A DNA stretch of 48,884 nt, from positions 1 through 48,884 of IMG/VR virus record IMGVR_UViG_3300044210_000049; one strand, written 5' to 3'. Below the pieces are notes generated by a model. That model was not told the DNA's origin. It ran no database searches and saw only the letters and a list, made by a program, of their open reading frames with translations. The first letter of the stretch is position 1. Each line of letters starts with the position of its first letter. The position numbers were made by a program, and so were the translations under genes. The DNA comes from a virus. Taxonomy: Duplodnaviria > Caudoviricetes. Shown piece after piece: positions 1 to 48,884 of this stretch.

Positions 1-127
1 GTATGCCCGCGCCTATGCTTTCCCGCATTTTGTCATACGGTTGTTAGAGGCTGTAACCGTGCGCTCTCCTGATTCTGCGCGGAAATTTTACCAGCCACTA
101 AACGGATCAACTTTTCCAAGGTGTTCT
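1..127. repeat. Terminal direct repeat, copy 1 (circular assembly overlap)
   Basis: Identical to 48758-48884; cuts through a cassette and the ORF 33..368. Confidence 0.95.
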
Positions 128-368
128 TAGGACTATTTTCACCAGGGCCATTTTCAGCAATCATACATTCTTCGACCTCCGGATTTTCGTCAGGGTCAGC
201 ACCTTCCGGATAAGAATAAAAGACAACTTTTGAATAATCATGAGGCATACATTCACAAGTTAATACTTGCCCTTTTGACAGTTCGACAACTTCGTCAGAA
301 AGCTCAACTGATGTTTCTTCTTTGCTGCCATGTGGATGAACGAACTGAATTAACTTGACTATACCCAC
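33..368 (-). CDS. Cassette A hypothetical protein
   Basis: 111 aa ORF, GTG start with AGGAGG RBS, stop falls inside the attC-like site. Confidence 0.8.
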   Translation of the reverse strand: MGIVKLIQFVHPHGSKEETSVELSDEVVELSKGQVLTCECMPHDYSKVVFYSYPEGADPDENPEVEECMIAENGPGENSPKNTLEKLIRLVAGKISAQNQESARLQPLTTV

Positions 369-420
369 TGCTACCTCCTTTATTTTTCCGCGCCTATTTA
401 TATGGCCGCACGGTTATTGC

Positions 421-566
421 CTCTAACGTTTCACAAAGCGCGAAGTTGCCGCGCCCACCTTGATACAACAGAAAGATTCATTGGAGCACTGCCGTTTTTG
501 ACGGTGACAATCTCACGCTCCATGGCTGCGGCAATTTGGGCGATAGCCGCGCTTTGTGTGTTGGCT
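421..566 (-). other. attC-like site of cassette B (long, with coding loop)
   Basis: ctctAAC-gttt-cacaaagcgcg ... cgcgctttgtg-t-GTTggct. Confidence 0.8.
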
Positions 567-778
567 GACGTTTTGCCAGCTACAATAATTTTCTTTCGGC
601 TGGCGATTTTGTGAAGCTCCAATGTAGCAACGGCGGCGGCCTTGTAACACACACGCTGAAGCACCTTGTCGTCAGGACGGCACGTTTTGCGGAACGCATC
701 ACCCATATCATCCCAAACCGCCTCCTCCACCGTTACGAAAAACTCAGGATACCGTTTGCGAACATCTGATACTCTCAT
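431..778 (-). CDS. Cassette B hypothetical protein, C-terminus encoded in the attC loop
   Basis: 115 aa ORF with GAGGAGG RBS. Confidence 0.8.
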   Translation of the reverse strand: MRVSDVRKRYPEFFVTVEEAVWDDMGDAFRKTCRPDDKVLQRVCYKAAAVATLELHKIASRKKIIVAGKTSANTQSAAIAQIAAAMEREIVTVKNGSAPMNLSVVSRWARQLRAL

Positions 779-837
779 CTTTTCCTCCTCGCCAGCCGAA
801 CTATAAATTCAAAGCTGGCAAAATGTGTGAAACGAAC

Positions 838-985
838 AGCCAACGGTTGACCAATGGCGACGTTACCGCCCTATATTATGCCACGCACAGAACACGGATG
901 TAGGTTCTGCATCGTCGTAACAACCAGTGATGAGGCATCTGGGCGGTAATGTGGCTTCAGCCCCTGCGCCATTGGTTTGTTGTGG
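838..985 (-). other. attC-like site of cassette C (long, with coding loop)
   Basis: agccAAC-ggttg-accaatggcg ... cgccattggt-tt-GTTgtgg. Confidence 0.8.
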
Positions 986-1072
986 GATGTGCTGCGCTGA
1001 CTCCTTAGTGTCCTGCGCGGCCTCTCCCATATCGAGAATAACGTCACGATCATCCTCACAATATTCGTCCAT
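863..1072 (-). CDS. Cassette C small protein with Cys/His tail
   Basis: 69 aa, GGAGG RBS; tail CLITGC...FCAWH lies in the attC loop. Confidence 0.7.
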   Translation of the reverse strand: MDEYCEDDRDVILDMGEAAQDTKESAQHIPQQTNGAGAEATLPPRCLITGCYDDAEPTSVFCAWHNIGR

Positions 1073-1128
1073 GATGAACCTCCGATTTAAGTGCCGTGCC
1101 TATCTGTAAAGACTCAGCGCAGCATTTC

Positions 1129-1190
1129 GTACAACGTTTCACGCACGTGCGATGCGCGGCTTTGCGCGTTTTGCACTGCGTGTGTTGTGC
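1129..1190 (-). other. attC-like site of cassette D
   Basis: gtacAAC-gttt-cacgcacgtgc ... gcactgcgtg-t-GTTgtgc. Confidence 0.85.
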
Positions 1191-1390
1191 GATGATTTTG
1201 CCACCTCCACGTTTTCAGATGGCGGCATTGGTAGTGACACCACCGTATACCCTTCGTCAGTTACAATACTCATAAAGCCAAAATCAAAGCGATACCCTAC
1301 CGTAAATAGAGGGTGTTCCGATACAACAACGCGCATGGCTTTGTTATACGGCGAACTTTCTGGAACCCACTGAACTACTATTGTCTTCAT
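1139..1390 (-). CDS. Cassette D hypothetical protein
   Basis: 83 aa, AGGAGG RBS. Confidence 0.8.
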   Translation of the reverse strand: MKTIVVQWVPESSPYNKAMRVVVSEHPLFTVGYRFDFGFMSIVTDEGYTVVSLPMPPSENVEVAKSSHNTRSAKRAKPRIARA

Positions 1391-1426
1391 GCCGCCCTCC
1401 TATAAATTCAAAGTGGCAAAATTTTC

Positions 1427-1501
1427 GCACAACGTGTTAGTATGGTGCTGTGGTACAACCGCATTGATGCCTAACCCATTGCATCCATACGGTTGTTGGT
1501 G
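1427..1501 (-). other. attC-like site of cassette E
   Basis: gcacAAC-gtgtta-gtatggtgc ... gcatccatac-ggtt-GTTggtg; 1436-1498 is identical to 48015-48077. Confidence 0.85.
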
Positions 1502-1538
1502 GCCTGTAAATCAAGCCTCCATAATTTCCTCCCAGGCG

Positions 1539-1901
1539 TTAAAACTGCCCCTCACCGAAACGGTCACCCCGATCATCGTCATAATCGTATTGTCTTGCGG
1601 CGGTAAATTCCGCATCTTCCAGCGCCTTGACTGTACCTTTTTGACGAGATGTCCAGTCGTCGGGAGAAAGTTTTTTTATTTCTTCAACTTCCATTCGAAG
1701 CGAAGGAAGCGAGCACTCGGCATTACTTCGTTTAGCGGCTTCGGACTTTGCAATCTTGTACTGCCGTACCGCTTCGTCTGCAAGGCGCTGCGCGGCCTTC
1801 CGCATTTCGTTTACCGCCGCCGGGGTTGATGCTTCGTTGGAGAGAGATACTTCAAAATGGCAGTAATCGAACGATAACATTATTTTTACGCTTGCACTCA
1901 T
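1539..1901 (-). CDS. Cassette E hypothetical protein (first cassette)
   Basis: 120 aa ORF with AAGGA RBS. Confidence 0.8.
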   Translation of the reverse strand: MSASVKIMLSFDYCHFEVSLSNEASTPAAVNEMRKAAQRLADEAVRQYKIAKSEAAKRSNAECSLPSLRMEVEEIKKLSPDDWTSRQKGTVKALEDAEFTAARQYDYDDDRGDRFGEGQF

Positions 1902-1956
1902 AGAATTTTCCTTTTGTGGTCGCCTGGGCTATTTATACCCAAGCTTGGTTTATGGA

Positions 1957-1991
1957 CACCAACTATTATTGTATGAAATAGCTAATTCAAG
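1957..1991 (-). other. Candidate attI-like primary insertion site
   Basis: caccAAC core closes the arm of cassette E and is followed by tattatt-gtatg (like the AAC-N6-gtatg half-site of the A, E, G and J sites), with no palindromic partner; the array ends here. Confidence 0.5.
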
Positions 1992-2207
1992 CTATTTGTA
2001 AAACTCAGGATATAACTTCCTGAATTTTAATCCTCTACGATCAAACTCATTTAGCACTGCCTGTGTAACAAAGTAATTAAGGCTACCAGTATTTTTTAAT
2101 CGGCATCCCATTTTAATCGATTGGGCTTTTGCCGCTTCTATAATACATGGAGAAAGAACCACTGTTGTAGGTATTGGTTTGTGATATTCTTTGTTGTTGT
2201 TTTTCAT
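1992..2207 (-). CDS. Small hypothetical protein upstream of the array, possibly a DNA-binding protein
   Basis: 71 aa basic ORF; strand-helix-helix-like pattern (inference). Confidence 0.6.
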   Translation of the reverse strand: MKNNNKEYHKPIPTTVVLSPCIIEAAKAQSIKMGCRLKNTGSLNYFVTQAVLNEFDRRGLKFRKLYPEFYK

Positions 2208-2213
2208 ATACGT

Positions 2214-2246
2214 ATAATATAATACATAATTCGTAATGTGTGTAAA
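2214..2246 (-). promoter_or_regulatory. Putative sigma70-type promoter reading toward the cassette array
   Basis: Minus strand TTTACA-16 nt-TATTAT in an AT-rich intergenic stretch. Confidence 0.4.
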
Positions 2247-8150: not shown

Positions 8151-8795
8151 TCAAATGATATTTATTAATTGTTTTCCTATCCATTCCGTATACGCCGGCG
8201 GAATAGCCTCATCCATTCCTTTGCGAGTCATCCATTGCAAATCAGCAGCGTCGCGCATTTCTTTTGCGCTTGGTTCATCTCTGTTTAAAATTCCATTAAT
8301 TTTTCTTCTTGGTGAACCACTTATTAAAATGCATTGAAAAGAGTGATCGCACCCCAAAATAGGCGGCGCAATATTTGGAAATATTTCAAAATATCTATGC
8401 CGGCGCACCCTCAATCCAAACATCGTACCACATAGCATAATAGGTCTTTCCAGCAATCGCATTGCGCCCCTTACATTTTCTATGACGTATGGCTTCCCGA
8501 TAGATTGTAGGGCTATCCTTGTCGATGCAATCAAATTAGGATGTCTCCCTCTATATGCAATGGGAGTTAATCCGGAATATCTCTGACATGGCGGACTTGC
8601 ATGGATAACGTCAAATTCTTTTCCGTGCTTTTTTAAATATTCAAAGGCGTCGGCTTGGTGAAATTCAAATGGGTATCTCGGTTGAGGTTTATGATCAATT
8701 CCCACTACCTCAAAACCGGCGCGATGATATCCCATTCCCGCCCCGCCTTGGCAGCAAAAAAGATCGAGCAGTTTAGGTTTTTTCATGTAAGTCAA
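8151..8795 (-). CDS. C5 cytosine DNA methyltransferase
   Basis: LDLFCCQGG, HASPPCQ, IENV, R.RHRYF motifs. Confidence 0.9.
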   Translation of the reverse strand: MTYMKKPKLLDLFCCQGGAGMGYHRAGFEVVGIDHKPQPRYPFEFHQADAFEYLKKHGKEFDVIHASPPCQRYSGLTPIAYRGRHPNLIASTRIALQSIGKPYVIENVRGAMRLLERPIMLCGTMFGLRVRRHRYFEIFPNIAPPILGCDHSFQCILISGSPRRKINGILNRDEPSAKEMRDAADLQWMTRKGMDEAIPPAYTEWIGKQLINII

Positions 8796-9431: not shown

Positions 9432-9869
9432 TCATTGTTTGTCCTTAGAACGAAGTAGAGTTATTCGATCATTAATCTGTTTACTCATATTATCAATACA
9501 CCGTTCAAATTGATTAATTCCTGCCGGCAAATCGATACTTTCCAGGAAAGCAATTTCTTCGCTGTGGTTGGCAGGTGGCTTTTGATCTTCCGCCGTTTTT
9601 AGCGAGCATTCTTTACAAAGCTCCTTCATGAATCCTATATTTCCGTTAGGCCAAGGATGACTGGAAATTGGGTTACGATTTCCCATTGGGTTACGATTTC
9701 CCATATCGTAATTTAATTCCGCATCATAGAAAGTTTTTTCACCACAATCATCGCTTTGATCTTCCACAATTTTTGACGCAATTTTTTCTTTCAGTTGTTT
9801 CCAAGTAGAAATATCCATTGCGTCACCGAATTGATATACTAACGACTCGATATGCTCTAAATGTGTCAT
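9432..9869 (-). CDS. Hypothetical protein with a cassette-derived C-terminus
   Basis: 145 aa; tail EEIAFLE...QINDRITLLRS resembles cassette O tail DEIAWLE...KINDRIAQLRA. Confidence 0.75.
   Translation of the reverse strand: MTHLEHIESLVYQFGDAMDISTWKQLKEKIASKIVEDQSDDCGEKTFYDAELNYDMGNRNPMGNRNPISSHPWPNGNIGFMKELCKECSLKTAEDQKPPANHSEEIAFLESIDLPAGINQFERCIDNMSKQINDRITLLRSKDKQ
9669..9704. repeat. 18 bp tandem duplication (MGNRNP x2)
   Basis: tgggttacgatttcccat twice, in frame. Confidence 0.85.
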
Positions 9870-9953: not shown

Positions 9954-10259
9954 TCAATACTGGTTCGGCCGGTGGTTAATATTTATTCCCCCGGACCCGT
10001 CCCCGTACCCGGCTCCGGACCCGTCCCCGTCCCCGTCCCCGTCCCCGGACCCGTCCCCGGACCCGGCCCCGTCCCCGGACCCGGCCCCGTACCCGGACCC
10101 GTCCCCGTACCCGGACCCGTCCCCGGACCCGGCCCCGTACCCGGACCCGTACCCGGACCCGGACCCGTCCCCGGACCCGGCCCCGTACCCGGACCCGTAC
10201 CCGGACCCGGCCCCGTCCCCGTCCCAGGATATAATAATATTTTCTTTTATGATCTCCAT
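9954..10259 (-). CDS. Gly-rich G(D/S/Y/A) repeat protein
   Basis: 6 bp-unit low-complexity tract at ~9990-10225; commonly paired with the upstream gene in phages. Confidence 0.75.
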
Positions 10260-10537
10260 TCCGGGACCGCCTTAATAGAAGCAATAGCAGTTTTTGTGCA
10301 TGGAATTATTTCTATTGCCTCGGTTAACTTTATTGATGGTATTGTAACTGAAAATTTGCATTCGTTTGGACATTTTACTCCACACAAAGCAAGTTCTGAC
10401 AATGAAGCCGCTCCTTTCCAATACCAAATGCGCCGAGTGTTTTTTAAAATAACTTCTTTACATTTTTGAGATACTAATGTTCCTGAATGTACCCCGGCTG
10501 AATAAGTTCTTACAATTACATACTCTGATTTTTTCAC
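10247..10537 (-). CDS. DUF6948-like phage protein
   Basis: [14 protein letters not shown]...[16 protein letters not shown]. Confidence 0.85.
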
Positions 10538-11270: not shown

Positions 11271-13229
11271 TTACTCCTTTGCCGCCGCCGCGTCGAGTTC
11301 GGCGTTTAATTTTTGGTCGGAAGATATTTTTTTTAATGGTTTTTTAACAAGCGTAGCCATTATTGATTCGTAATTTTTTTCCGGGATATCGGTAAGAACT
11401 TTTATTGTTTCGTCTTTTAAAAGACCACGATAAAACTTTAAAATAGAATCAACGCTTGCGCCTTCTCGTTTTGCAATTTCCTCTAAAATGTTAGAAGTTT
11501 GATTGGTAGAAATTAAAAGCACGTCGGAGTTTTTAGGTTCTTTTTCTTCGGTAATGTTAATGACTTTATTTTCAAGGAAAAGAATATCTTCCTTGTCCTC
11601 TCTGACTTCCGGAAGTTCGAGCATGCTTTTTGTCGGATCAATAAGGGCAAATTTTTGTAAATCGGAAAGAGGGAAATCCATATTGATATGCAGAATATAG
11701 TGTTTCGATTTTTTCCCTTCGTAAGTAATTTCTTGCTCTCTGCGCTCCAATTTTAACGGGATCATGTGAACGCGACCGCAAATAGCCTTGATATATTCAA
11801 GGCAAGAATTTATGTTTACAATAGAATGAAATGAACCGGTAACTATTTCCCATACGCCAGCCCCTTTTAATTCCGGCAAAAGGATAGAAAGCGCTGCGGA
11901 TTCTGAGCATTTTTTTTGCTGATAAAATGGACAATCCTGTCCTTTGCAATTTACTCGTACTCCTCCCATTTCGGATGCCCCAAGCACTTCGAGGCTGGCC
12001 GCATGCTCTTGTGATATACATACTGCTTCTATCCCATCTCCCTTGCAGCGCAATACTCCATTAGCGTATCGTTTGTAAAATTGAGGAAAGAAAATAGACG
12101 GGTCTGGAAGCGGGAACATTATTCGAATCTGTTTGGGTTTTTCCCCGTATAGTTTTTCGTATTCTGAAATAAGGTTTTTGTTTTCCAACTCGGAAGGTGT
12201 TTTCGGATCAAGTTTGAAATAGTCTATTTCTGCCGGATATTCAACTCCTTTCGATGAAACTTTTTTAATTCCAAGGCGAATTTTTCCAAGCCTCGGAAGC
12301 CTTCTTATTTCCGACAATCCTTTAATCATTTCTTCCTCGCTTTGTTTTTGAGTTTTTAAATATTTTCCATAAGAACAAAATTCAGCAACCGCGCAAAAGC
12401 GCGCGCATTTAAGTCCTTCCCAGTTTTCGAGTCTATCACAGGTCGGAGGCGCGGTCATAGTTTTTAAAGCGCTTAAAAGGGCTTCCCGCTTCATTTTGAA
12501 ATAATCCAATACTTCTTGATCCGTAATAATTTTCAAGTTGAAGTAATAAACGTTTCTGAAAATTCCCCGGCTTCTCGCAATGAATGTTCCTCCATCCCGA
12601 ACGCAACATTGTATTTTCAGGTGATTTATTTTTTTCCCTAAACGTTTTTCCGCTTCGATTCGATATTTATTTAATTGCAGTTCCCATTCCCATCGGTCTT
12701 CATATTTTTGATCTCTGACAAGCTCTTTTATGGTTTTCTTCTCACCTTTTCGCTTTCCGCTTTTAAAAACTTCATCGGTTTCTTTTTCGATGACTTTAAA
12801 ACCGAGTGCCTTGGCAACTTTGTAGGAGCCGGAAGTTTTGTAGTCGATCATGTCAATTTGGCCATTTTCGATCTCTATCACATCGGAAATTCCGGTTTCA
12901 TCGGTGTCGTCTCCGTCGAATTTTTCTTCGAGAAAAGAGAGTTCATCTTCCGAACCTTCCAAAACAGCATGACCTTTTGTACCATGTAACATAAAAGCTC
13001 GGGAATCCGGACTTATAGAATATTCTTTTGTTAAGATTAAGAATGCTTCGAGTGTCCCGCGTATTAATTGGGTAGTAGATGGCTTTCCGGTCCATATTCT
13101 TTCTCTCGAAGCGAGTCTCAAATAGGAGCGAGTCGCGCAACGTTCACCCATTCGGCAGCCGCCCTCTTTCAAGCAGTCGTCTATTTCTATTTTATCGTTG
13201 TCTGGACATATAAAATATTTTAATGGCAT
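11271..13229 (-). CDS. Fusion: Cas4-like PD-(D/E)XK nuclease plus Gp3-like (recombination directionality factor family) domain
   Basis: N-half has GISD...IDYKTSG, QLNKY and a Cys cluster (CARFCAVAEFC); C-half has RRLPRLGKIRLG...CKGDG...GVWEIVTGSFHS. Confidence 0.75.
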   Translation of the reverse strand: MPLKYFICPDNDKIEIDDCLKEGGCRMGERCATRSYLRLASRERIWTGKPSTTQLIRGTLEAFLILTKEYSISPDSRAFMLHGTKGHAVLEGSEDELSFLEEKFDGDDTDETGISDVIEIENGQIDMIDYKTSGSYKVAKALGFKVIEKETDEVFKSGKRKGEKKTIKELVRDQKYEDRWEWELQLNKYRIEAEKRLGKKINHLKIQCCVRDGGTFIARSRGIFRNVYYFNLKIITDQEVLDYFKMKREALLSALKTMTAPPTCDRLENWEGLKCARFCAVAEFCSYGKYLKTQKQSEEEMIKGLSEIRRLPRLGKIRLGIKKVSSKGVEYPAEIDYFKLDPKTPSELENKNLISEYEKLYGEKPKQIRIMFPLPDPSIFFPQFYKRYANGVLRCKGDGIEAVCISQEHAASLEVLGASEMGGVRVNCKGQDCPFYQQKKCSESAALSILLPELKGAGVWEIVTGSFHSIVNINSCLEYIKAICGRVHMIPLKLERREQEITYEGKKSKHYILHINMDFPLSDLQKFALIDPTKSMLELPEVREDKEDILFLENKVINITEEKEPKNSDVLLISTNQTSNILEEIAKREGASVDSILKFYRGLLKDETIKVLTDIPEKNYESIMATLVKKPLKKISSDQKLNAELDAAAAKE

Positions 13230-16201: not shown

Positions 16202-16623
16202 TTTTTTGCTCCTTTTCCCGGTTAAATTATTTTAATAATCCCCCGGCGCTAAGGAGCGGGAAGTCGCGGTGAATACCATAGCCCCTTACGGATTTTCCGG
16301 TGCGCCGGAGGGAATTTTTATTTACATTATAATATTATTCCATGCATACTTTTTTATAGTTTACTATGGCATCCCCCAGTTTATGACTAAATATTTTTTT
16401 TCAGTTCTGCTACCGCGCATCCAATTTCATTTTGATCGCTATCGGTATATCCCGCATTATGCAGGTAGACACCATCACATAGGGCATCGATGGCATCTCT
16501 TTTATCTCCGTGACAATTTCGCAGTGCTTCTTTTGCGATTGCGTTCATTTTTTCCTCCTGGTTATTGTCCTCATCAGTACCGGTCTACCATCAGACCGCC
16601 CGGAGGCGGTTTCGGACTAAATT

Positions 16624-17541
16624 TCACAGAATTATATCAACTAATAACGTATACTCGCCGACTGTTTTTGTGATCCTGGCGATATCGAGAGTGTCCATGT
16701 CGTCATGATCATCGTAATACTCGTGGTGGTATGTCGCTGTCGCGCCGGGTATTTTTGCGAGCGCCGACTGAATTTTTTCGAACTGCGCGTCGGTGAGCGT
16801 TTTTTTATCGGATTCTGAGTGCTCAATAGTCTCTCCGTAGTCATCGGTTTCCTCCGGGAGATGATATTCATCGGCAGGCAGAGCGTCGGCGCCAAGGAAA
16901 GAAAAAATATCCGCACGAATCAAATCGATAACCTCGCTCCTCGCCATAACGCCCGCCGCCCAACGCGCTTTTTGTGTGTCGGTACCGAGGCGCCCGACAG
17001 CCTCGTTGAGTTGCGCGAGTTTGCGGGATTCAATTTCCGCGTCGTTTTTTTCTTTTTTTGCCCGTGCTCCGTCGGCAATTTTTTTCGCCTCGGTATTATG
17101 ATCGGAGCAAATTTTTTTGAGCCGTTCAACCTCGTTTTTTACTCGTCCGTCGCCGATACCGTTGGGGCGATTATAGTCAAAAACTCGCCAATTTCCGAGT
17201 GCCCGGTCCTCGATTTTTTTTTCATCCGGTAGCGCCAACCATGCCACAATTGCCGCGTTGTCGGCAGCGATACCGTCGGCAATTTCTTTTTTTAGCGCAT
17301 CGAGCGCAGTATCCGGGGTGAGTAGTACTGCCTGATCCGTATCGAGGGTATTCCAATTTCGTCCCTGGTGCGTCTCGATCCATATCGCGCCGTCGGATTG
17401 GATTTTTGTATGCTCGGTATCCGATATCATGGATACGAGATCAACCTCAACCTCTCGGTTTCTCGCTCCATCGCGCCCGGCGGCGATTTCGGCGCGTTGA
17501 AGCGCATCTGTGATTTTGTAGGATATTTTTGTGAGGCTCAT
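16624..17541 (-). CDS. Early hypothetical protein
   Basis: 305 aa, GGAG RBS, GC-richer region. Confidence 0.8.
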   Translation of the reverse strand: MSLTKISYKITDALQRAEIAAGRDGARNREVEVDLVSMISDTEHTKIQSDGAIWIETHQGRNWNTLDTDQAVLLTPDTALDALKKEIADGIAADNAAIVAWLALPDEKKIEDRALGNWRVFDYNRPNGIGDGRVKNEVERLKKICSDHNTEAKKIADGARAKKEKNDAEIESRKLAQLNEAVGRLGTDTQKARWAAGVMARSEVIDLIRADIFSFLGADALPADEYHLPEETDDYGETIEHSESDKKTLTDAQFEKIQSALAKIPGATATYHHEYYDDHDDMDTLDIARITKTVGEYTLLVDIIL

Positions 17542-20672: not shown

Positions 20673-21057
20673 AAAGCTATTTCAAAAAGGTCAATCAGGA
20701 AATCCCAACGGTCGCCCCAAAAAGGAGCATTGCTTTTCTGATATTGCTCGACAAATTCTTTCTGCTAAAAAATTGGATATTGAATATACTTTCCCGTCTG
20801 GCGGGACCATGAAACTTTCTAAGGTCCATCTTGAAAGTGATAAAACATTTTACCATAGTCTTGTTTGCGCTTTGCTTAAGGAAGGACTTGACGGAAACGT
20901 GCAAGCTGTAAAAGAGCTTATAGACCGTACCGAAGGCAAAGCCATTGAGTCAATAGACCATACCACTAAGGGTGAAAAGATAGTTCAAAATACATACAAT
21001 GTTGTGTCCGCTAAAACCGCCGAAGCTTTGAAAGAGATTGACAAAAATGGTATATAA
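20665..21057 (+). CDS. terS: Terminase small subunit
   Basis: FQKGQSGNPNGRPK...ELIDRTEGK; directly upstream of TerL. Confidence 0.8.
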   Translation: MPKKLFQKGQSGNPNGRPKKEHCFSDIARQILSAKKLDIEYTFPSGGTMKLSKVHLESDKTFYHSLVCALLKEGLDGNVQAVKELIDRTEGKAIESIDHTTKGEKIVQNTYNVVSAKTAEALKEIDKNGI

Positions 21058-22215
21058 TTGCACTAATGTTTTTGACCGCAATCTTGATGCAATTCTAAAA
21101 AAAAAAGAGTTATCATCAACCAGGGCGGGACATCGAGCAGTAAAACATTTTCAGTTATTCAGCTCGTTGATAAAATATGCACGACAATTAAAAGAAAATT
21201 TCTATTTTCAATTGTTTCTGAAAGCCATCCTCATTTAAAACGTGGATGCATTCGTGATTTTCAAAACATCAAAGGCGACACGTGGGAAGATTCGAGATGG
21301 AATCGCACAAACAGCATTTATGAATACGACAATGCAACATTGGAATTCTTCTCCGCTGATGAAGCAAGTAAACTCCGTGGCGGTCGTAGGAATGCTCTTT
21401 TCGTTAATGAGTGCAATAATATTACCGGTCAATCTGCTGACGAATTGTTTGTTCGTACTTCTGAATTTATTATCCTTGACTATAATCCTGTTAGTGAATT
21501 TTGGATTCACGAAAAAGGTCTTATCCATGATCAAAAATCAGAATTTATACATAGCACTTACCTTGATGCAAAGCACGTTTTACCAAAAGCCATTGTTGAG
21601 GATATCGAAAGTAGAAAGGATAAAGACCCGAATTGGTGGCGAGTTTATGGCTTGGGAGAAATCGGAAACGTTGAAGGGCTTGTCCATCCAAAATTTGAAC
21701 TTATTAACAGCCTTCCAAGTGGTGGGATAGTTTTTTATGGCCTTGACTGGGGTTTTTCAAATGATCCAACCTCTTTGGTAAAATGTGTTATAATTAAAGA
21801 CTGGCTGCTATGCGATCAATTAATTTATGAGAAGGGGTTAACGAATCAACAAATTGCATCGCGTTTTCAAACTCTTGGAATACGGAAAAATTACGATGAA
21901 ATATTCGCGGACTCGGCAGAACCAAAAAGTATTAAAGAAATTCAACTATATGGCTACAATATAAAGCCGACAGTAAAGGGAGCCGATAGCGTTTTAGCTG
22001 GAATTCAAAAGGTAAATCAATATAATCAGGCATGGACTAAAAGAAGTCTTGATTCAATTAAGGAGCAGCGTAATTACCGATATATCGAGGATTCAAATGG
22101 CAAGATTACAAATAAACCCATGGATGATTTTAACCATTCGATGGACGCAAGGCGCGGAGCGGTATTTACAAAGATTACAGTTAACCCAGGCCAGGCCCTT
22201 CGGCTCGCAATTTAA
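21047..22215 (+). CDS. terL: Terminase large subunit (PBSX-like), split by a -1 frameshift at A10
   Basis: After the A10 run (21097-21106) the -1 frame reads RVIINQGGTSSSKT...FVNECN...GLDWGFSNDP...FNHSMDA. Confidence 0.9.
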
Positions 22216-42916: not shown

Positions 42917-44797
42917 ATGAATAAAATACTGTTTTTTATATTGGCAATTTATACATTTTCTTTTTCCTCCGCACCATCATTTGCGTATGAAAAGCAATCG
43001 GTGACTATCAATATGATTAAAAAAATTCAACCTTCGTATTTTTGCAGGATGATGAAAACGACGATGGATTCCTTATCAAATTCCAATAGTTACGAGCACA
43101 ATATCCGTTTTTATAATGGTGTTTATTACTTTTTTTATGAATATGGAAATGAGCAATATGCATGCACGACCACCATTTTAGATAGCCTTCCGGTTGAAAT
43201 AACAAAACGGACATATGTAATACGAACGACGGATGACAAACATGTGGGGAGTTACCCTAATGCGTTTTACGATTCTTCATATCATCGATGGAACATGTTT
43301 TCAGCGGCATATGTTAATCCTCAATGGTATGGTGTGCATTCTGTTTCCACGTCATGGAAGGGGCCGTATACAGTACTCGATACCTTTGATTCCAATGTCG
43401 CCGATATGAATTGGATAAAATATAAAAATAAAATGATTGGTATATCCAATTGTCCGAACAGTAACTTTTATTCTCGCGTTTACAAAAGTGATGTTCTTGG
43501 AAAACCGTATTCCGTTTATCCAAAGCCTTTTTTTCCATCATATCAGGCTTTCGATTCAACCATGTATTCTTACTATAGGATACAGGGAGACGATGGTCTT
43601 TTTTGGCATAATAACAGACTATATTTTACTTTTTTTCCTAAAAATTCCCTGGCCGGAGGAGAGGGATATCTTTCCGAAGGTATCGCATTGACAGAAATAG
43701 ACACTTCAACATTTAAAGCAAAATATCCGCCATATTTAATACATTTAAAAACGTCCAGCGGTTCGCCATCGTTTATTCCTGACAACACTGAAAGAATATT
43801 ATATCGTAATGTAGGTATTTTAGGAATTCTTTCTCCTGATAATTCTTATGCTCTGCGAAATCATAAAGATTTATTCCGTTTAAATTTGGCTACAGGAATG
43901 GATTCCGCAATTGGACTTCCGGCACATTTTAGCAGGGCTATTATTCCTTCAGGCGGTGGTGAGGCATGGTACTCAGATAGTGGATATGTGAAATCTGCGG
44001 TTAGTACAAATGGACTGTATGGTTTTATGTCTCAGTCTCGGTTCTGGGGTGTATATATCAATATAAAAATAAAATTCTGGTCTATTCCTGCTGCTGCTAA
44101 TTATAGAGTTTTATTTGCAATTGCGGACGACGATCCATATGTCGGAACTCCGGTAATAGCAGTCCTACAACATGGTGCTAATTTACTATGGAGTATTGGA
44201 AGTGGAACAACTTCAGATTTCGGAGAGGACAACGTTGTATCTTCATTAACAACAGGCGTTGAATATGATTTTAAAATAAAACGAATACAGGATACGGTAA
44301 AGTTGCTTAAAAATGACGTTGTTTTATCTAAAAAATACTTTGCTTTAGCAGATAGTTTTTCAAAGGGAAGCAGTTCGTATTTTGAATGGAGGCTTGGGAC
44401 GCGTGAAGGGGCTCAAATGGCCAGTCCGTACCCATATCCGTCATTCCAAGGGAAAGTGAGTCGGTTTTATGCGAATATCGATTCCGTATCTCTTTCTCCT
44501 CAATTGGATTATGATACCATTGTCACATCTAATTTCACCATCGATACCGTAGTTTCTTCCGGAGGCGCCATCGATAGTTTCTCTGCCTCCGGCGTACCGC
44601 TCGGTATGTGGGTTGATCGGATCACCGGGAAGCTCTCTGGAACTCCGCTGGATACCGGGCACTGGACGGTAATAACTACAGGGTATAATACGGATGGAAA
44701 CGGATTGGATACTGTTTTAATTAATTCTTTTTGGGGGTCAGGATCAAATTTAAAGAAATATCGACGCTTTAGGTTTGGTAATGGGTTTGGATTCTAA
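42917..44797 (+). CDS. Secreted multi-domain protein (propeller-like, ConA/LamG-like and Ig-like domains)
   Basis: Signal peptide; SASGVPLGMWVDRITGKLSGTP Ig-type motif; FQGKVSRF LamG-like end. Confidence 0.7.
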   Translation: MNKILFFILAIYTFSFSSAPSFAYEKQSVTINMIKKIQPSYFCRMMKTTMDSLSNSNSYEHNIRFYNGVYYFFYEYGNEQYACTTTILDSLPVEITKRTYVIRTTDDKHVGSYPNAFYDSSYHRWNMFSAAYVNPQWYGVHSVSTSWKGPYTVLDTFDSNVADMNWIKYKNKMIGISNCPNSNFYSRVYKSDVLGKPYSVYPKPFFPSYQAFDSTMYSYYRIQGDDGLFWHNNRLYFTFFPKNSLAGGEGYLSEGIALTEIDTSTFKAKYPPYLIHLKTSSGSPSFIPDNTERILYRNVGILGILSPDNSYALRNHKDLFRLNLATGMDSAIGLPAHFSRAIIPSGGGEAWYSDSGYVKSAVSTNGLYGFMSQSRFWGVYINIKIKFWSIPAAANYRVLFAIADDDPYVGTPVIAVLQHGANLLWSIGSGTTSDFGEDNVVSSLTTGVEYDFKIKRIQDTVKLLKNDVVLSKKYFALADSFSKGSSSYFEWRLGTREGAQMASPYPYPSFQGKVSRFYANIDSVSLSPQLDYDTIVTSNFTIDTVVSSGGAIDSFSASGVPLGMWVDRITGKLSGTPLDTGHWTVITTGYNTDGNGLDTVLINSFWGSGSNLKKYRRFRFGNGFGF

Positions 44798-44848
44798 CGA
44801 TGCAACGATGCAAATAACCGGTCCTCCGGTTAATTTGCGTTGTTGGTC
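44792..44848 (-). other. Terminal attC-like hairpin, possibly also a convergent terminator
   Basis: ttctAAC..caacgatgcaaataaccgg-tcct-ccggttaatttgcgtt-GTTggtc, where the two transcription directions meet. Confidence 0.55.
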
Positions 44849-44864
44849 GGCTGCACGAAGTCCG

Positions 44865-44942
44865 CTATCTTTTTAATCCCCAAATCATAAACGCAAACGC
44901 AAAGCATACTCCAACTATTGCAAAAGCTGTCGGCCAGTCCAT
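44865..44942 (-). CDS. 25 aa membrane peptide
   Basis: MDWPTAFAIVGVCFAFAFMIWGLKR with AAGGA RBS. Confidence 0.55.
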   Translation of the reverse strand: MDWPTAFAIVGVCFAFAFMIWGLKR

Positions 44943-44964
44943 AATTAATCCTTTTTTAATTTAC

Positions 44965-45210
44965 TTATTTTACTTTCGGCCATGGTGATTCGCCTTTAGG
45001 CTTAATTAATGAATATCCATCATCATCACTATGGCACTCACAAATATTAACACTATATTTATACGCAATCTTTTTGCACTTGTTTTTACGCTTATTTGAA
45101 TAATAACTGCAACCATTATTAACGCATATTTCCATCGGTCCCGATATTTTTGTGGCTATTGTTTGCTGGTTTTGCGGATTCAATTTATTACGCATAGCAT
45201 TTTCTTCCAT
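44965..45210 (-). CDS. Cys-rich hypothetical protein in the degenerate array tail
   Basis: 81 aa; crosses a degenerate site near 45120-45170. Confidence 0.55.
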   Translation of the reverse strand: MEENAMRNKLNPQNQQTIATKISGPMEICVNNGCSYYSNKRKNKCKKIAYKYSVNICECHSDDDGYSLIKPKGESPWPKVK

Positions 45211-45365
45211 TCTATTATTAAAAATGGTGAAGGCTTCCTACAGTTTACAACCCTACACATTGCGCAGGATTTCTCGTTTTTTACTGCACGGATCCCGGTG
45301 AGATCACGGGCCTGTGTAGACCGCGTTTCATTGATTACATCCATATAAAAGCCTTCACCATGTCC

Positions 45366-45519
45366 AGCCAAAGTTCACCGCATTGCGCGAAGTTGCGCTA
45401 TTCGATCATTTATCTTTTGTTTAATAAAAAAATATGAGTTACGGGTATTATTACAATTGACATCGGTGTCTTTTAGTACCGTTTCCAGCCAAGCAATTTC
45501 GTCGCTGCGGTTGTTATGC
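45366..45519 (-). other. attC-like site of cassette O (core mutated AAC to AAA)
   Basis: agccAAA-gttc-accgcattgcgcgaagttgc ... gcaatttcgtcgctgcggt-t-GTTatgc. Confidence 0.7.
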
Positions 45520-45635
45520 GAATGTTTTGACGCATCCGCAATGTTCCTTGAAAATGGATTCTCAAATGTTTTTGGAGAAACCCAAACTTCATTATCCGGT
45601 ACAAGGCTATTTGCTATCAAAAACTTCTCATCCAT
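45375..45635 (-). CDS. Cassette O protein
   Basis: MDEKFLIA start with GGAG RBS; tail lies in the attC loop. Confidence 0.75.
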   Translation of the reverse strand: MDEKFLIANSLVPDNEVWVSPKTFENPFSRNIADASKHSHNNRSDEIAWLETVLKDTDVNCNNTRNSYFFIKQKINDRIAQLRAMR

Positions 45636-45668
45636 TTTCAACTCCAATATAAGAGCGGTAAAACTTTT

Positions 45669-45723
45669 GTATAACTGATCGCAAATTGGCGGTCGTTTTA
45701 ATGCTACACTTTCGCTGTTATAC
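45669..45723 (-). other. attC-like site of cassette N
   Basis: gtatAAC...GTTatac, 55 bp, weak inner stem. Confidence 0.65.
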
Positions 45724-45859
45724 GAAGTTTGTCGGTCTTCCTTAATTTACTGCCACCAATGAATTTACATTTTTTAAATTTACACTTAGTATGAAAAACT
45801 CCGGCACCAACTGAAATAAGATTTATGTACTTGCAAAAAAAACATTTTCTTATTTTCAC
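45704..45859 (-). CDS. Cassette N small Cys-rich basic protein
   Basis: GTG start after AAGGA; CFFC...CKFKKC. Confidence 0.6.
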   Translation of the reverse strand: MKIRKCFFCKYINLISVGAGVFHTKCKFKKCKFIGGSKLRKTDKLRITAKV

Positions 45860-45899
45860 TTTTATTCCTTTAGGCGGCCTATAATAACGTGCTTTTGAC

Positions 45900-45978
45900 C
45901 GCCAACGTATTGCGGTACGCATGAAGTAAAGTACGACTGCATACCGCTTACCTTTATTTTATGCTGCCGCTGTTAAAT
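45900..45978 (-). other. attC-like site of cassette M
   Basis: cgccAAC-gtatt-gcggtacgcatgaagtaaag ... ctttattttatgctgccgc-t-GTTaaat. Confidence 0.8.
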
Positions 45979-46204
45979 GCTGTTTAGGCAACATCCTTTT
46001 ATCTGCGGGCGGACCGTAACAAATGTTTATTGCTTTAATAAGACAATTAACGCAAAGATCGCCACCATTTATGATTCCGTTTGTTCCTGACATAATCTCA
46101 AAATTTACACCAGTATTTTCTACCATGGGACAGCCACGCAAGCGATTCGATGTTACCGATTTTTCTACTTCGCTCCCGCAAGCGTCGCAATAATGTTTAA
46201 TCAT
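45959..46204 (-). CDS. Cassette M zinc-finger-like protein
   Basis: YCDACG...DLCVNC, AAGGAG RBS. Confidence 0.8.
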   Translation of the reverse strand: MIKHYCDACGSEVEKSVTSNRLRGCPMVENTGVNFEIMSGTNGIINGGDLCVNCLIKAINICYGPPADKRMLPKQHLTAAA

Positions 46205-46249
46205 TTTAAGCTCCTTGCCGCCCGCCTATTTATATGGTCGAAGCGGCAT

Positions 46250-46412
46250 TGAAAACGTTTGATAAATGGAGAAGTGCGCGGCGGTTCCGTAGTGCGCTTC
46301 GTGCTGATTAACAGCACTTCCCGGCTATACACGGTACCATAATTCCGGTATGCAATTGCCGCGCATTTTGCTTCACCATTCATTTATGCTGCCAGACATT
46401 TATTTGTTAGAT
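46250..46412 (-). other. attC-like site of cassette L (long)
   Basis: tgaaAAC-gtttg-ataaatg..gtgcgcggc ... gccgcgcat...catttat-tt-GTTagat. Confidence 0.7.
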
Positions 46413-46492
46413 GCCGTTGAAAAGGGCTTCCATAATGTAAGCGCACGCCTTGCGACGGCCACCGATCTCACTGAAGCGCATACGCGGTTCAT
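46400..46492 (-). CDS. Cassette L 30 aa peptide (or non-coding cassette)
   Basis: GAGGAtaATG; MNRVCASVRSVAVARRALTLWKPFSTASNK. Confidence 0.35.
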   Translation of the reverse strand: MNRVCASVRSVAVARRALTLWKPFSTASNK

Positions 46493-46554
46493 TATCCTCG
46501 ATAGTTCTGACTTTATGGAAGCGCCTACTAACATAAAAGCCCTTTTCTATGGCA

Positions 46555-46695
46555 TTATAACGCCCGACAAAGGGCGAAGTTATTTCGATTTGTAACATTC
46601 AGGCTTACAGTTTTTTATATAGTCAATACAGTTAAAACAACGATTAGCACATGTTTCACGGGACGGAATAATTTCTCCCCTTTGCTCTGTTGTAG
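46555..46695 (-). other. attC-like site of cassette K (long, with coding loop)
   Basis: ttatAAC-gcccga-caaagggcgaagtta ... taatttctcccctttg-ctct-GTTgtag. Confidence 0.8.
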
Positions 46696-46876
46696 GTGCT
46701 ACACCCTCCAGAGTACGCCCCGCTGTTTCTGGTTGCGTTTCCAAAGTCTTTGCGGCTCGATTTTCCAACCACAAAACATACTTTAATGTGTGCCACGTAA
46801 GACCTTCCAATTGGTAAACTACATCTTCGCCAGTTTCGGTTTTATACAGTGTCATCAGTTTGTAATTTAGAGACAT
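46580..46876 (-). CDS. Cassette K protein with Cys-rich tail
   Basis: 98 aa. Confidence 0.75.
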   Translation of the reverse strand: MSLNYKLMTLYKTETGEDVVYQLEGLTWHTLKYVLWLENRAAKTLETQPETAGRTLEGVAPTTEQRGEIIPSRETCANRCFNCIDYIKNCKPECYKSK

Positions 46877-46919
46877 TCGAGCCGCCTATTTAATAATGGT
46901 TTTCGCAACCAGAAATTTA

Positions 46920-46996
46920 CTACAACGGGAAAGTATGTTGCTGTTTGGTACAACCGCATATCTACTTTCCCAAATGGAAACATACGGTTGTTGTGA
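46920..46996 (-). other. attC-like site of cassette J
   Basis: ctacAAC-gggaaa-gtatgtt..tttgg ... ccaaa..aacatac-ggtt-GTTgtga. Confidence 0.85.
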
Positions 46997-47033
46997 ACTG
47001 TAAACGCGCTTCCGCATTATGCTTTCGGCGCAT

Positions 47034-47165
47034 TTACTTTTTGTTGCTGCCGGGCTTGGTAAAACCGCGTCCCCCCAATTCTTTATCATTTTCTACCGCA
47101 CGGCGATAACCTTCTTGACGGGCTTCAAGACGCTTCTTTGATTTTGAAAGTTTGTTTCTGCTCAT
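47034..47165 (-). CDS. Cassette J 43 aa basic peptide (not in the ORF track)
   Basis: AAGGAG RBS; MSRNKLSKSKKRLEARQEGYRRAVENDKELGGRGFTKPGSNKK. Confidence 0.75.
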   Translation of the reverse strand: MSRNKLSKSKKRLEARQEGYRRAVENDKELGGRGFTKPGSNKK

Positions 47166-47217
47166 TTGATAACTCCTTTATGCGCCGAACTATTAAATTC
47201 AAAAGCGCGTTTATGGT

Positions 47218-47287
47218 TTATAACGTCCGACAAATGGAGAAGTTCCGCCTCGGAATTTAGCCTTGCGGCTCCATTTGTTTGTTAGGC
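47218..47287 (-). other. attC-like site of cassette I
   Basis: ttatAAC-gtccg-acaaatggag ... ctccatttgt-tt-GTTaggc. Confidence 0.85.
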
Positions 47288-47634
47288 GCTGAATTGACTG
47301 CTTCCACATTTCCCGCCGCTCCTTGTTTGAATATTGACGAAAGCATATTTATTTCACGGTCGTGAAGTTTTTTTATTTCTGCCTGCAAATCGTAAAAGTC
47401 CATTTTGGGGAGCCGGATTTTCTCGATACGATACCCAACGAGAGCAAGAAACGGTAACAAAACATCCATTGTAAAAATATGCTGGCTTACCCAGCTATGC
47501 CCGGCCATTTCTTTCATGCCAGCGCAATCCCTTTGCCACTCCCAAAGCAACTTAAAAAAATCCTTTGCATCATGGAAGTCTTTAAGAAAATCCGGCACTT
47601 GTTTCTCGTCATGAAGATATTGCTTAATGTCCAT
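47257..47634 (-). CDS. Cassette I hypothetical protein
   Basis: 125 aa, PDFLKDFHDAKDFFK motif. Confidence 0.8.
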   Translation of the reverse strand: MDIKQYLHDEKQVPDFLKDFHDAKDFFKLLWEWQRDCAGMKEMAGHSWVSQHIFTMDVLLPFLALVGYRIEKIRLPKMDFYDLQAEIKKLHDREINMLSSIFKQGAAGNVEAVNSAPNKQMEPQG

Positions 47635-47685
47635 AAGTAATTTTTTCCTGGCGCGGCCTACTCACATAAAAGCAGGCAATTTTGC

Positions 47686-47755
47686 GCATAACTTTGACCA
47701 AGTGCGAAGTGCTGTACTCAGCATTTAGGCTTCCGGCGCACTTGGTTTGTTGTTT
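47686..47755 (-). other. attC-like site of cassette H
   Basis: gcatAAC-tttg-accaagtgcg ... cgcacttggt-tt-GTTgttt. Confidence 0.85.
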
Positions 47756-47956
47756 TTAGTTGCTCGCCTTCCTTAATTCTCTGGCGGGCGTTATTTTTGC
47801 GACGGCTTCCACATTGACCTTGCGAATAAGATCATACTCTCCGACAAGGCGCTTTTCATCCAGAGTACATGCGTCAAAAGCTGATGGATGGGCGACCAAA
47901 TACTTTGTGTCGCCGTCCATTTCCTCGTATACGAAAATCTTTTTTGGTAAACTCAC
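47756..47956 (-). CDS. Cassette H hypothetical protein
   Basis: 66 aa, GTG start, AAGGAG RBS. Confidence 0.75.
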   Translation of the reverse strand: MSLPKKIFVYEEMDGDTKYLVAHPSAFDACTLDEKRLVGEYDLIRKVNVEAVAKITPARELRKASN

Positions 47957-48005
47957 TTTATTCTCCTTTTGTTATGCCCGCCCTATAAATTAAAAGGCGA
48001 GCAAT

Positions 48006-48080
48006 TGAAAACGGGTTAGTATGGTGCTGTGGTACAACCGCATTGATGCCTAACCCATTGCATCCATACGGTTGTTGTTT
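48006..48080 (-). other. attC-like site of cassette G
   Basis: Near-identical to the cassette E site at 1427-1501. Confidence 0.85.
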
Positions 48081-48329
48081 TTAGTTTGCCGGGCTTCCTT
48101 GATTTGCTTCCAGCGCGCTTAATACCCAAACGCGATAGCCCTTTTCTTCTTTACGTGTAGCCAATTTAAAGCCATATTTTCGCACGTTTCCGCAAACACT
48201 GTTCATTTCTTTTCTGCTACTAAAAAGGATAGAGTCCCCCGCAGTCATAGTTTTAAATGTTGGCATATACATCCCGTGGTTCCGAGGGGGAGGGATCGGA
48301 ACGCCCTTTTCGACAACTAAATTAGACAT
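48081..48329 (-). CDS. Cassette G hypothetical protein
   Basis: MSNLVVEKGVPIPP...MTAGDS...YRVW; AAAGG RBS. Confidence 0.8.
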   Translation of the reverse strand: MSNLVVEKGVPIPPPRNHGMYMPTFKTMTAGDSILFSSRKEMNSVCGNVRKYGFKLATRKEEKGYRVWVLSALEANQGSPAN

Positions 48330-48383
48330 AAGAACCTTTCTTTTGCGCCGGACTATCCATTCAACAGCCCGGCAAATTGAATA

Positions 48384-48513
48384 CAACAACGTCCGCGCTA
48401 TTGCGCTGCCCGCACATACCCCTTGCACTGCAACATAGTTACATAGCACTCTCCGTCGTTCGCACAGGTATCACAGTCGCGCTGTTCGGGTGGCGTGATA
48501 GCGCGTGTTGTGT
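48384..48513 (-). other. attC-like site of cassette F (long, with coding loop)
   Basis: caacAAC-gtc-cgcgctattgcgctgccc ... gggtggcgtgatagcgcg-t-GTTgtgt. Confidence 0.85.
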
Positions 48514-48688
48514 GCTGTTCCGGTTTTGCTTCCACAGCTCCCAGAGCGGCGTTATTTGTTATGGCAACCAAATCCACTTTAACACCGCCGGGGACATTGC
48601 CAAAACTATTACCATGCATAATTTCCTTTGGAACACTAAACGTCAACGTACATTCCTCGAAATCGAACGAGTGCATTTTTAATTTCAT
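48398..48688 (-). CDS. Cassette F protein with Cys-rich tail
   Basis: 96 aa, AGGAG RBS. Confidence 0.8.
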   Translation of the reverse strand: MKLKMHSFDFEECTLTFSVPKEIMHGNSFGNVPGGVKVDLVAITNNAALGAVEAKPEQHTTRAITPPEQRDCDTCANDGECYVTMLQCKGYVRAAQ

Positions 48689-48729
48689 ACGCCGCTCCTA
48701 TAATAAAATGTTTTCAAAACCGGAATTGC

Positions 48730-48806
48730 AACCAACGGAGAAGTATGGCGAAGTGCGGTATGCCCGCGCCTATGCTTTCCCGCATTTTGTCATACGGTTG
48801 TTAGAG
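48730..48806 (-). other. attC-like site of cassette A (spans the circular join)
   Basis: aaccAAC-ggagaa-gtatggcgaagtgcgg ... ccgcattttgtcatac-ggtt-GTTagag. Confidence 0.85.
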
Positions 48807-48884
48807 GCTGTAACCGTGCGCTCTCCTGATTCTGCGCGGAAATTTTACCAGCCACTAAACGGATCAACTTTTCCAAGGTGTTCT
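48758..48884. repeat. Terminal direct repeat, copy 2
   Basis: Identical to 1-127. Confidence 0.95.

Follow-up and report, generated by a model that had tools for sequence, protein, structure and literature searches.

The integron integrase IntI carries an insertion of about 41 residues (I2), which has been called essential for integron function (Smyshlyaev 2021, PMC8138268) and the I2 helix of which accommodates extra-helical bases (Escudero 2016, PMC4792948), and the ends of canonical integron cassettes pair with each other over 9–11 nucleotides (nt) (Bouvier 2009, PMC2727003). Integrase-less clusters of attC sites are already known in phages. The window described here is the whole 48,884-nt stretch of IMG/VR record IMGVR_UViG_3300044210_000049, a virus of the Caudoviricetes, and the element of interest is an array of 16 cassette units on its minus strand, which begins at a leader GTT (1963), crosses the circular join and ends at the last GTT (44797). 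This array is real, mobile and non-canonical. Its one-gene cassettes have self-complementary ends and are probably moved at the G/TT boundary (the slash marks the cassette boundary) by a tyrosine recombinase of the host that lacks the IntI insertion.

The cassette array and its sites

The window is a complete tailed-phage genome (100% completeness), with head and tail genes. The array crosses the circular join, as proposed in an earlier note on this DNA, because the record is complete, with direct terminal repeats and a terminal overlap of 127 nt. The cassette array claimed in that note is confirmed by the mapping of the 16 units: each of the 14 core positions named there is the G of a minus-strand GTT, position 45372 is a mutated core (TTT), and the repeats exceed what is found in shuffled sequence. 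Inverted repeats anchored by GTT...AAC and scoring at least 28 are found in ten cassettes, all within the array and none elsewhere in the genome, and two shuffles of the genome give 1 and 0 of them. Cassettes 1–15 are 231–530 nt long and the decayed last unit is 575 nt, the inner hairpins span 44–149 nt, and the decay increases towards the distal end of the array. An assembly artefact is ruled out by three contigs of the public sequencing run X1 that cover the stretch (depth 18–20), one of which closes the join; this run may itself be the source of the window.

The earlier note had seen no recombinase in the phage, and this is also what is found here: tyrosine recombinase (PF00589) and serine recombinase (PF00239) domains have no match in the six frames of the window, and no recombinase family is matched in Pfam or PHROGs by its 76 open reading frames (ORFs). 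PF00589 is likewise not found in a set of 12 related virus records, of which 10 carry an array and four are at least 90% complete. The array is a site cluster without an integrase nearby, as in the definition of clusters of attC sites lacking integron integrases (CALINs), and it has the AAC...GTT cores with the cassette boundary at G/TT that define an integron array.

A property that is absent from the earlier note is that each cassette starts and ends with inverted copies of its own, cassette-specific, sequence, such that about the first 21 bases (about 45 in phages) pair with the last bases of the same cassette. When junctions are set by a covariance model and not by the repeat, which makes this an unbiased test, 43 of the 63 junction intervals pair best with their own partner, with a mean score of 28.7 versus 10.0; the own-versus-other matrix chose each AAC to fit its own arm. 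In a set of 114 cassettes, which is score-selected, the arms match in 73–97% at positions 4–9 and in 90–96% at positions 12–21, compared with 25–36% at positions 13–21 and 80% at the conserved T of position 12 when the arms are shuffled. The mismatch of positions 10–11 is conserved, and in 107 of these 114 cassettes there is a T.G wobble of the bottom strand at position 11. Wobbles at positions 4–9 also favour the bottom strand (51 versus 5 for the top strand), and wobbles and energy together are biased towards it in 95 of the 114; when whole circle junctions are considered, only 10 of the 16 in the window are biased in this way, two of these by 0.1 kcal/mol or less or a tie. Of 143 cassettes from phages or metagenomes, 119 have a second stem (the distal stem, at least 7 bp), compared with 5% in non-own pairs, and so do 17 of 45 host cassettes.

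The inner hairpins have mostly 1–2 unpaired bases after AAC and 4–6 before GTT. The canonical attC geometry (R box, unpaired central spacer and L box, with an extra-helical base in L''), searched with a simple pattern made for this analysis, is found at no site of the array and at six sites beside true IntI genes, and Rfam gives no match within the array. At 71 of the 72 junctions located behind a cassette, GTT is preceded by C; among 115 others, 27 have A in this place. Judged by their sequence, the sites of the window are not canonical attC sites.

Related arrays and a candidate host recombinase

A search with the junction motif finds 11 loci in viral records (8 with the same cassette family), 11 in genomes (2 with this family) and 47 in metagenomes (38 with this family), L256 and L279 being the same array and counted once. 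The arrays are found in phages of 38–219 kb, and no window protein is common to all array phages compared, two large ones being covered in part. The exact 26-nt hairpin pattern has no match in metagenomes, GenBank phages give no match, and relatives sought via the radical-SAM gene and the cassette 9 protein are not returned. A phage-like array contig is located in a Chitinivibrionales bin (G011). In the bins G011 and G013, a loose pattern search does no better than its control. A Terminase_3C search of these two bins is blank, so that it is by gene content that the array contigs of G011 and G074 are identified as phages, and contig G013:C2 is not shown to be one. The latter (168 kb; loci L015, L060 and L205) comes from a bin with the label Thermoplasmatales, carries cassettes in an array at each of its ends, and is perhaps a mis-binned circular phage.

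The covariance-model search of genomes suggested in the earlier note does return family sites, in 20 of 151 genomes of the phylum of the Chitinivibrionales bin, compared with 4 of 151 in the phylum of the Geobacteraceae bin and 2 of 151 in that of the Bacteroidetes bin. The binned contigs and this distribution suggest that the host is probably a Chitinivibrionales-type bacterium. In the phylum of the Geobacteraceae bin, five loci of four genomes (L286–L290) have the same site family, with paired ends in three of the five. A description of these sites or of the enzyme was not found in searches of open-access literature; the supplements of Qi 2023, with 17 CALINs, could include such arrays.

In one host genome (G153), a tyrosine recombinase with Phage_int_SAM_4 and PF00589 domains is encoded slightly less than 100 nt ahead of the array and in the same orientation. 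Its score against the IntI model TIGR02249 is 158 bits, versus a cut-off of 265, and it is also below the cut-offs of XerC, XerD and XerA (155, 160 and 198 bits versus 335, 330 and 220). Where IntI4 of V. cholerae has 74 residues it has 32, without the insertion of about 41 residues, and the spacing of the motifs is 64–66 in such insertion-less recombinases versus 105–107 in IntI, in those rows where the pattern is read correctly. Relatives of this recombinase are present in 25 of the 81 genomes of the class. Among 36 Fibrobacterota recombinase loci, 11 have a paired cassette 61–445 nt downstream at A/GTT, and the host leaders behind the recombinase often follow a short hairpin. The covariance model has 30 matches in 29 loci of insertion-less recombinases (247,095 nt); the control of 19 true IntI loci (208,785 nt) gives no model match and no paired cassette, and it is there that the six canonical sites occur. 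In the recombinase tree, IntI is one clade (100 by the Shimodaira–Hasegawa-like approximate likelihood ratio test, SH-aLRT, the only support calculated), and most cassette-leading enzymes are in a separate group of 27 rows (SH-aLRT 93), with three outside. A single-sequence AlphaFold model of the recombinase has a predicted local distance difference test score (pLDDT) of 36, too low to be of use. At four loci (L138, L140, L141 and L145), insertion-less relatives are directly followed by a gene and not by cassettes, and this gene looks, by its motif, like that of an IS91-type transposase.

Movement, cargo and layout of the cassettes

That the cassettes have moved is shown by the comparison of phage sequences. 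The flanking genes of L256 are syntenic with those of the window at 70–79% nucleotide identity, yet cassette 5 is the only shared cassette: it is 93% identical over 454 nt, fifth in rank in the window and second in L256, has different neighbours, and its homology starts and ends at the GTT cores. This agrees with the earlier note, which had staked its proposal of a shuffled cassette library, moved in trans for a phage without a detected recombinase, on such differences between relatives with ends at the cores. Cassette 1 follows the leader in the window (A/GTT) and is internal in L293 (C/GTT), where the copy has another hairpin from the AAC core onward. In the host genome G153, two paralogous loci, one of them broken, have a common leader and differ in the first cassette from GTT onward. 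One X1 contig of low depth (3.7) skips 216 nt inside cassette 8 (47772–47989) and has the same frame with other sequence; it probably comes from another phage in the sample.

The cassettes also appear to be modular. Near-identical hairpins are found on different bodies in 12 of 16 pairs, and such sharing of hairpins alone resembles conserved attC repeats. This set and that of the distal stems contain some pairs that are not independent, a truncated hairpin, a locus (L241) read backwards and stems of low complexity. The hairpin of cassette 7 is that of cassette 1 but for one base, and the hairpin of cassette 13 is joined to another arm at the AAC core in a contig of the same sample. A single proximal frame occurs in combination with several distal stems that differ from each other and each match themselves, and a single proximal stem with five such core-proximal stems. 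Between cassette 6 and L208, the gene and distal stem are common and the proximal stems differ, each matching itself. More unusual is that one pair of arms can hold different genes: in L071, the frame of cassette 7 holds a different or only distantly related gene and that of cassette 9 an unrelated gene; the same two arms with different genes are also found between L243 and L250 and between L060 and L205. Conversely, the C5 DNA methyltransferase at 8151–8795 (minus strand) is a plain gene in the window and a framed cassette in L006 (65% amino acid identity). These sequences suggest to us that ordinary phage genes are loaded anew into existing frames; gradual compensatory mutation or templated hairpin repair may be alternatives. 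As of Escudero 2016 (PMC4792948) there was no reliable model of cassette genesis, and cassette formation is listed as open in Ghaly 2021; since the same frame occurs with different genes and the same gene occurs framed and unframed, cassette genesis becomes testable here.

The cargo of phage and host arrays differs. The median arm-to-arm length is 235 nt in phage-type arrays versus 1206 nt in host arrays. Many phage cassette ORFs read through the site into the hairpin, which the earlier note had not reported: when the longest sense ORFs are considered, 46 of 57 in phages stop within the inner hairpin and 36 of 41 in hosts stop before the 3' arm. A Pfam match is obtained for 14 of 40 host cargoes, 11 of which are of a defence- or conflict-linked kind in our own grouping (GmrSD, Mrr, TIR, STAND, AbiEii-type AAA, PIN, methylases and others). 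Among 42 phage cargoes, a set that includes three genome-bin contigs, one of these without evidence of phage nature, there are four DNA methyltransferases, one Tad2-like protein, one Lar-like protein and one pyrophosphatase, and these seven look, by family matches, like counter-defence genes. The counter-defence cargo suggested in the earlier note is therefore seen in part, namely in related arrays (methylase, Tad2-like, Lar-like), and cannot be assigned to genes of the window by family searches. Cassette 1 carries a gene of a widespread phage family, of which a single one among 39 viral homologues is framed.

Long hairpins also serve as coding sequence. Where the inner hairpin of a phage cassette is at least 100 nt, 16 of 38 encode CxxC in a frame that is open from the AAC core, a count that has no shuffle control. 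The C-terminus of ORF 9432–9869 (minus strand), outside the array, resembles the hairpin-encoded part of ORF 45375–45647 (37% over 43 amino acids), and is possibly a domesticated hairpin or the coding source of one.

The features of the array, all on the minus strand, follow each other as mapped. Upstream lies a promoter-like site at 2219..2246 (a 10/12 match in a motif scan), a candidate cassette promoter; in a relative, this position holds a similar motif, and since 1–2500 holds six such sites versus 4.5 expected, the match is not above chance. A 71-amino-acid ORF without a family match in the family searches (1992..2207) directly precedes the array. The leader at 1961..1970 is an attI-like A/GTT site that is not preceded by a cassette hairpin of the site family, and is likely the entry point for cassettes. 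Next come cassette 1 (1434..1963; ORF 1539–1901; AAC 1495), cassette 2 (1136..1433; ORF 1139–1390, reading into the hairpin; AAC 1184), cassette 3 (845..1135; ORF 863–1072; AAC 979) and cassette 4 (428..844; ORF 431–778; AAC 560), which has a 10-nt insertion in its 5' arm. Cassette 5 is divided by the record ends, with its first part at 1..427 (ORF 33–368; AAC 43) and its inner hairpin at 48737..48884, of which 48758–48884 repeats 1–127. Beyond the join are cassette 6 (48391..48736; ORF 48398–48688; AAC 48507), cassette 7 (48013..48390; AAC 48071 or 48074), cassette 8 (47693..48012; ORF 47756–47956; AAC near 47752), cassette 9 (47225..47692; ORF 47257–47634, phrog_15705; AAC 47281) and cassette 10 (46927..47224; a 43-amino-acid ORF at 47034–47165; AAC 46990). 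Cassette 11 (46562..46926; ORF 46580–46876; AAC 46689) has an insertion in its 3' arm, and cassette 12 (46257..46561; AAC 46406) has an inner hairpin of 149 nt. Towards the distal end, cassette 13 (45907..46256; ORF 45959–46204; AAC 45972) has decayed arms, cassette 14 (45676..45906; AAC, as read from the sequence, probably 45717) has a shortened 5' arm and the weakest pairing, and the ORF of cassette 15 (45373..45675; ORF 45375–45647; AAC 45513) reads through the hairpin. The decayed distal unit or units (44795..45372) start at the mutated core and end in the last hairpin and GTT (44795–44842), which abut the stop of a converging tail gene.

Some genes outside the array are also of note. The ORF of the terminase large subunit (21340–22215, plus strand) matches only the later part of its family profile, and its start may lie in another frame (21038–22215, plus strand). 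A DUF6948 gene is followed by a low-complexity ORF rich in Gly, Ser and Asp (9954–10537, minus strand). The 652-residue protein of 11271–13229 (minus strand) has an N-terminal part that reads as nuclease-like and a Gp3-like 'recombination directionality factor' domain, in a phage without a detected serine integrase. Just after the stop of ORF 16624–17541, a weak Rfam match to the type II hammerhead ribozyme is found outside the array (16561–16617, minus strand; 28.5 bits, gathering threshold 37, E 0.09).

Proposed mechanism, alternatives and known systems

In the proposed mechanism, phage replication would make the bottom strand single-stranded. Pairing of the 5' and 3' arms of a cassette would then leave the gene as a loop and, together with the hairpins on both sides, set up a four-way junction in advance; a single exchange at the cores would be enough to free the cassette as a circle in the shape of a dumbbell. 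The arms of this circle would give a duplex of about 21 bp beyond the core, to which an enzyme without the IntI helix could bind, and the circle would re-enter at the A/GTT leader or at another junction. Hairpin tips, proximal stems and gene loops might also be swapped between cassettes, by which ordinary phage genes would be loaded into existing frames; in an enzyme that lacks I2 the second exchange would not be blocked, and tips and loops could pass from circle to circle by two-strand swaps. The phage would thus use the defence-gene platform of its host for its own accessory, partly counter-defence, genes. In this full form, as a sister system of integrons with an insertion-less recombinase, dumbbell cassettes whose nested stems, hairpin tips and gene loops are exchangeable modules and take up ordinary genes (which would make a route of cassette genesis visible), and phages without a recombinase that parasitise a host defence shuffler to assort counter-defence genes, the reading is put forward tentatively, as a possibility that we would sooner doubt than assume.

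Several observations weigh against movement of the cassettes by a host recombinase without the insertion. The link between enzyme and cassettes is, at the level of sequence, one of adjacency only, and 25 of the 36 recombinase loci have no paired cassette within 450 nt, although 11 of these 25 end within 450 nt and one (L189) has a weaker cassette. A recombinase relative (E<=1e-30) is found in only 12 of the 20 site-positive genomes; some matches at this level look transposase-linked and not cassette-leading, and G011, the bin with an array-bearing phage contig, has none. The recombinase tree comes from a quick search. The own-partner test failed in 20 of the 63 intervals, many of which span a missed site. 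The assignment of the host is drawn from binned contigs and from a site distribution over three phyla. No excised circle is seen in the contigs of the single run X1. Pfam, PHROGs, ESM Atlas and NCBIfam assign no function to the cargo of the window (NCBIfam has no significant match for 21 window ORFs and ESM Atlas no usable match for two cargo proteins), the one PHROG matched being of unknown function. Recombinases of this kind near attC sites have been judged to be other than IntI and to have few sites next to them (Cury 2016, PMC4889954). True IntI is over its cut-off in 18 of the 81 genomes of the class and IntI1 recombined five of six phage attC sites (Qi 2023, PMC9892861), so that IntI could act here too.

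This last point leads to the alternative that survives best, although we consider it unlikely, namely that the array is an ordinary CALIN with atypical attC sites moved by a true IntI of the host, and that the long arms only stabilise the circle. The GTT and AAC cores, the bottom-strand bias and the G/TT boundaries are as in integrons, CALINs are known in virulent phages and IntI1 is promiscuous (Qi 2023). However, the array has no site of canonical geometry, the unpaired spacer is mostly 1–2 nt versus 4–6 nt, the self-pairing of about 21–45 nt exceeds the canonical 9–11 nt, and the 19 IntI loci hold canonical sites and none of the family of the window, which adjoins the insertion-less recombinase. 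The assignment to canonical attC sites moved by IntI, made in the earlier note, is therefore not upheld.

The phage has many ORFs without a family, and an unrecognised enzyme of its own, such as the product of ORF 16624–17541 or the nuclease-like/Gp3 fusion of 11271–13229, could in principle move the cassettes. This is improbable: the arrays are spread over phages of very different size with no shared window protein among them, as noted above, and the host recombinase, PF00239 and PF00589 are unmatched in five near-complete virus records. Slightly less probable still is a single capture of the array from a host chromosome, after which it would have become inert in the phage. The decay of the distal cassettes and the lack of circles in run X1 can be cited for this; the phage cassettes are short compared with those of hosts, contain phage-type genes, have the distal stem far more often and differ between close relatives. 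That the repeats are expression modules (ribosome-binding hairpins or 5'–3' pairing of the mRNA) shuffled by homologous recombination, for which the promoter stem-loop modules of T4 are an analogue, is hardly credible: most phage ORFs do start in or just after the 5' arm, often with a Shine-Dalgarno-like sequence, and read through the 3' arm, but the breakpoints lie at a 3-nt core between non-homologous flanks, the wobbles favour the antisense strand and not the mRNA, and in chromosomes these sites are located behind a recombinase gene.

Movement by the insertion-less host recombinase, if true, would provide a second enzyme-and-site grammar for the capture of gene cassettes, and a single platform with both the defence arrays of hosts and the accessory arrays of phages would serve directly in their arms race. 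The phage cargo that lacks annotation provides a short list of candidate counter-defence genes.

When compared with integrons (PMC2727003, PMC4889954, PMC4792948), the system described here shares the co-oriented one-gene cassettes, the AAC...GTT cores, the G/TT boundary, a hairpin that may fold from the bottom strand, a putative leader site, the distal decay and a tyrosine recombinase with a Phage_int_SAM_4 N-terminus. It differs in that the recombinase is without the IntI insertion of about 41 residues and points into the array, the spacer is shorter, there is no canonical L-box geometry, the own-end pairing is longer and is interrupted at +10/+11 by a mismatch that is conserved, the leader often takes the form of a hairpin, and phage ORFs read through the site. 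It works like an integron and agrees with the plain description of a phage CALIN, and departs from integrons in two defining features, the IntI insertion and attC geometry. For the insertion-less members of the 'integron-like' tyrosine recombinases, the available text of Smyshlyaev 2021 (PMC8138268) gives no cassette arrays or sites. Sedentary chromosomal integrons, seen as anti-phage stores (bioRxiv 10.1101/2024.07.02.601686), resemble the host arrays in that these carry defence domains; here, the platform is non-IntI and phages keep their own arrays on it. The CALINs of virulent phages (Qi 2023, PMC9892861) are also integrase-less co-oriented arrays, some with DNA methyltransferases, moved by a recombinase in trans. 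They were detected by means of attC models and their assay was made with IntI1, the three that are figured are small (TJE1: four ORFs, three sites), and in the available text neither cassette-specific arms nor a non-IntI enzyme is described, whereas the window has 16 cassettes of another site class.

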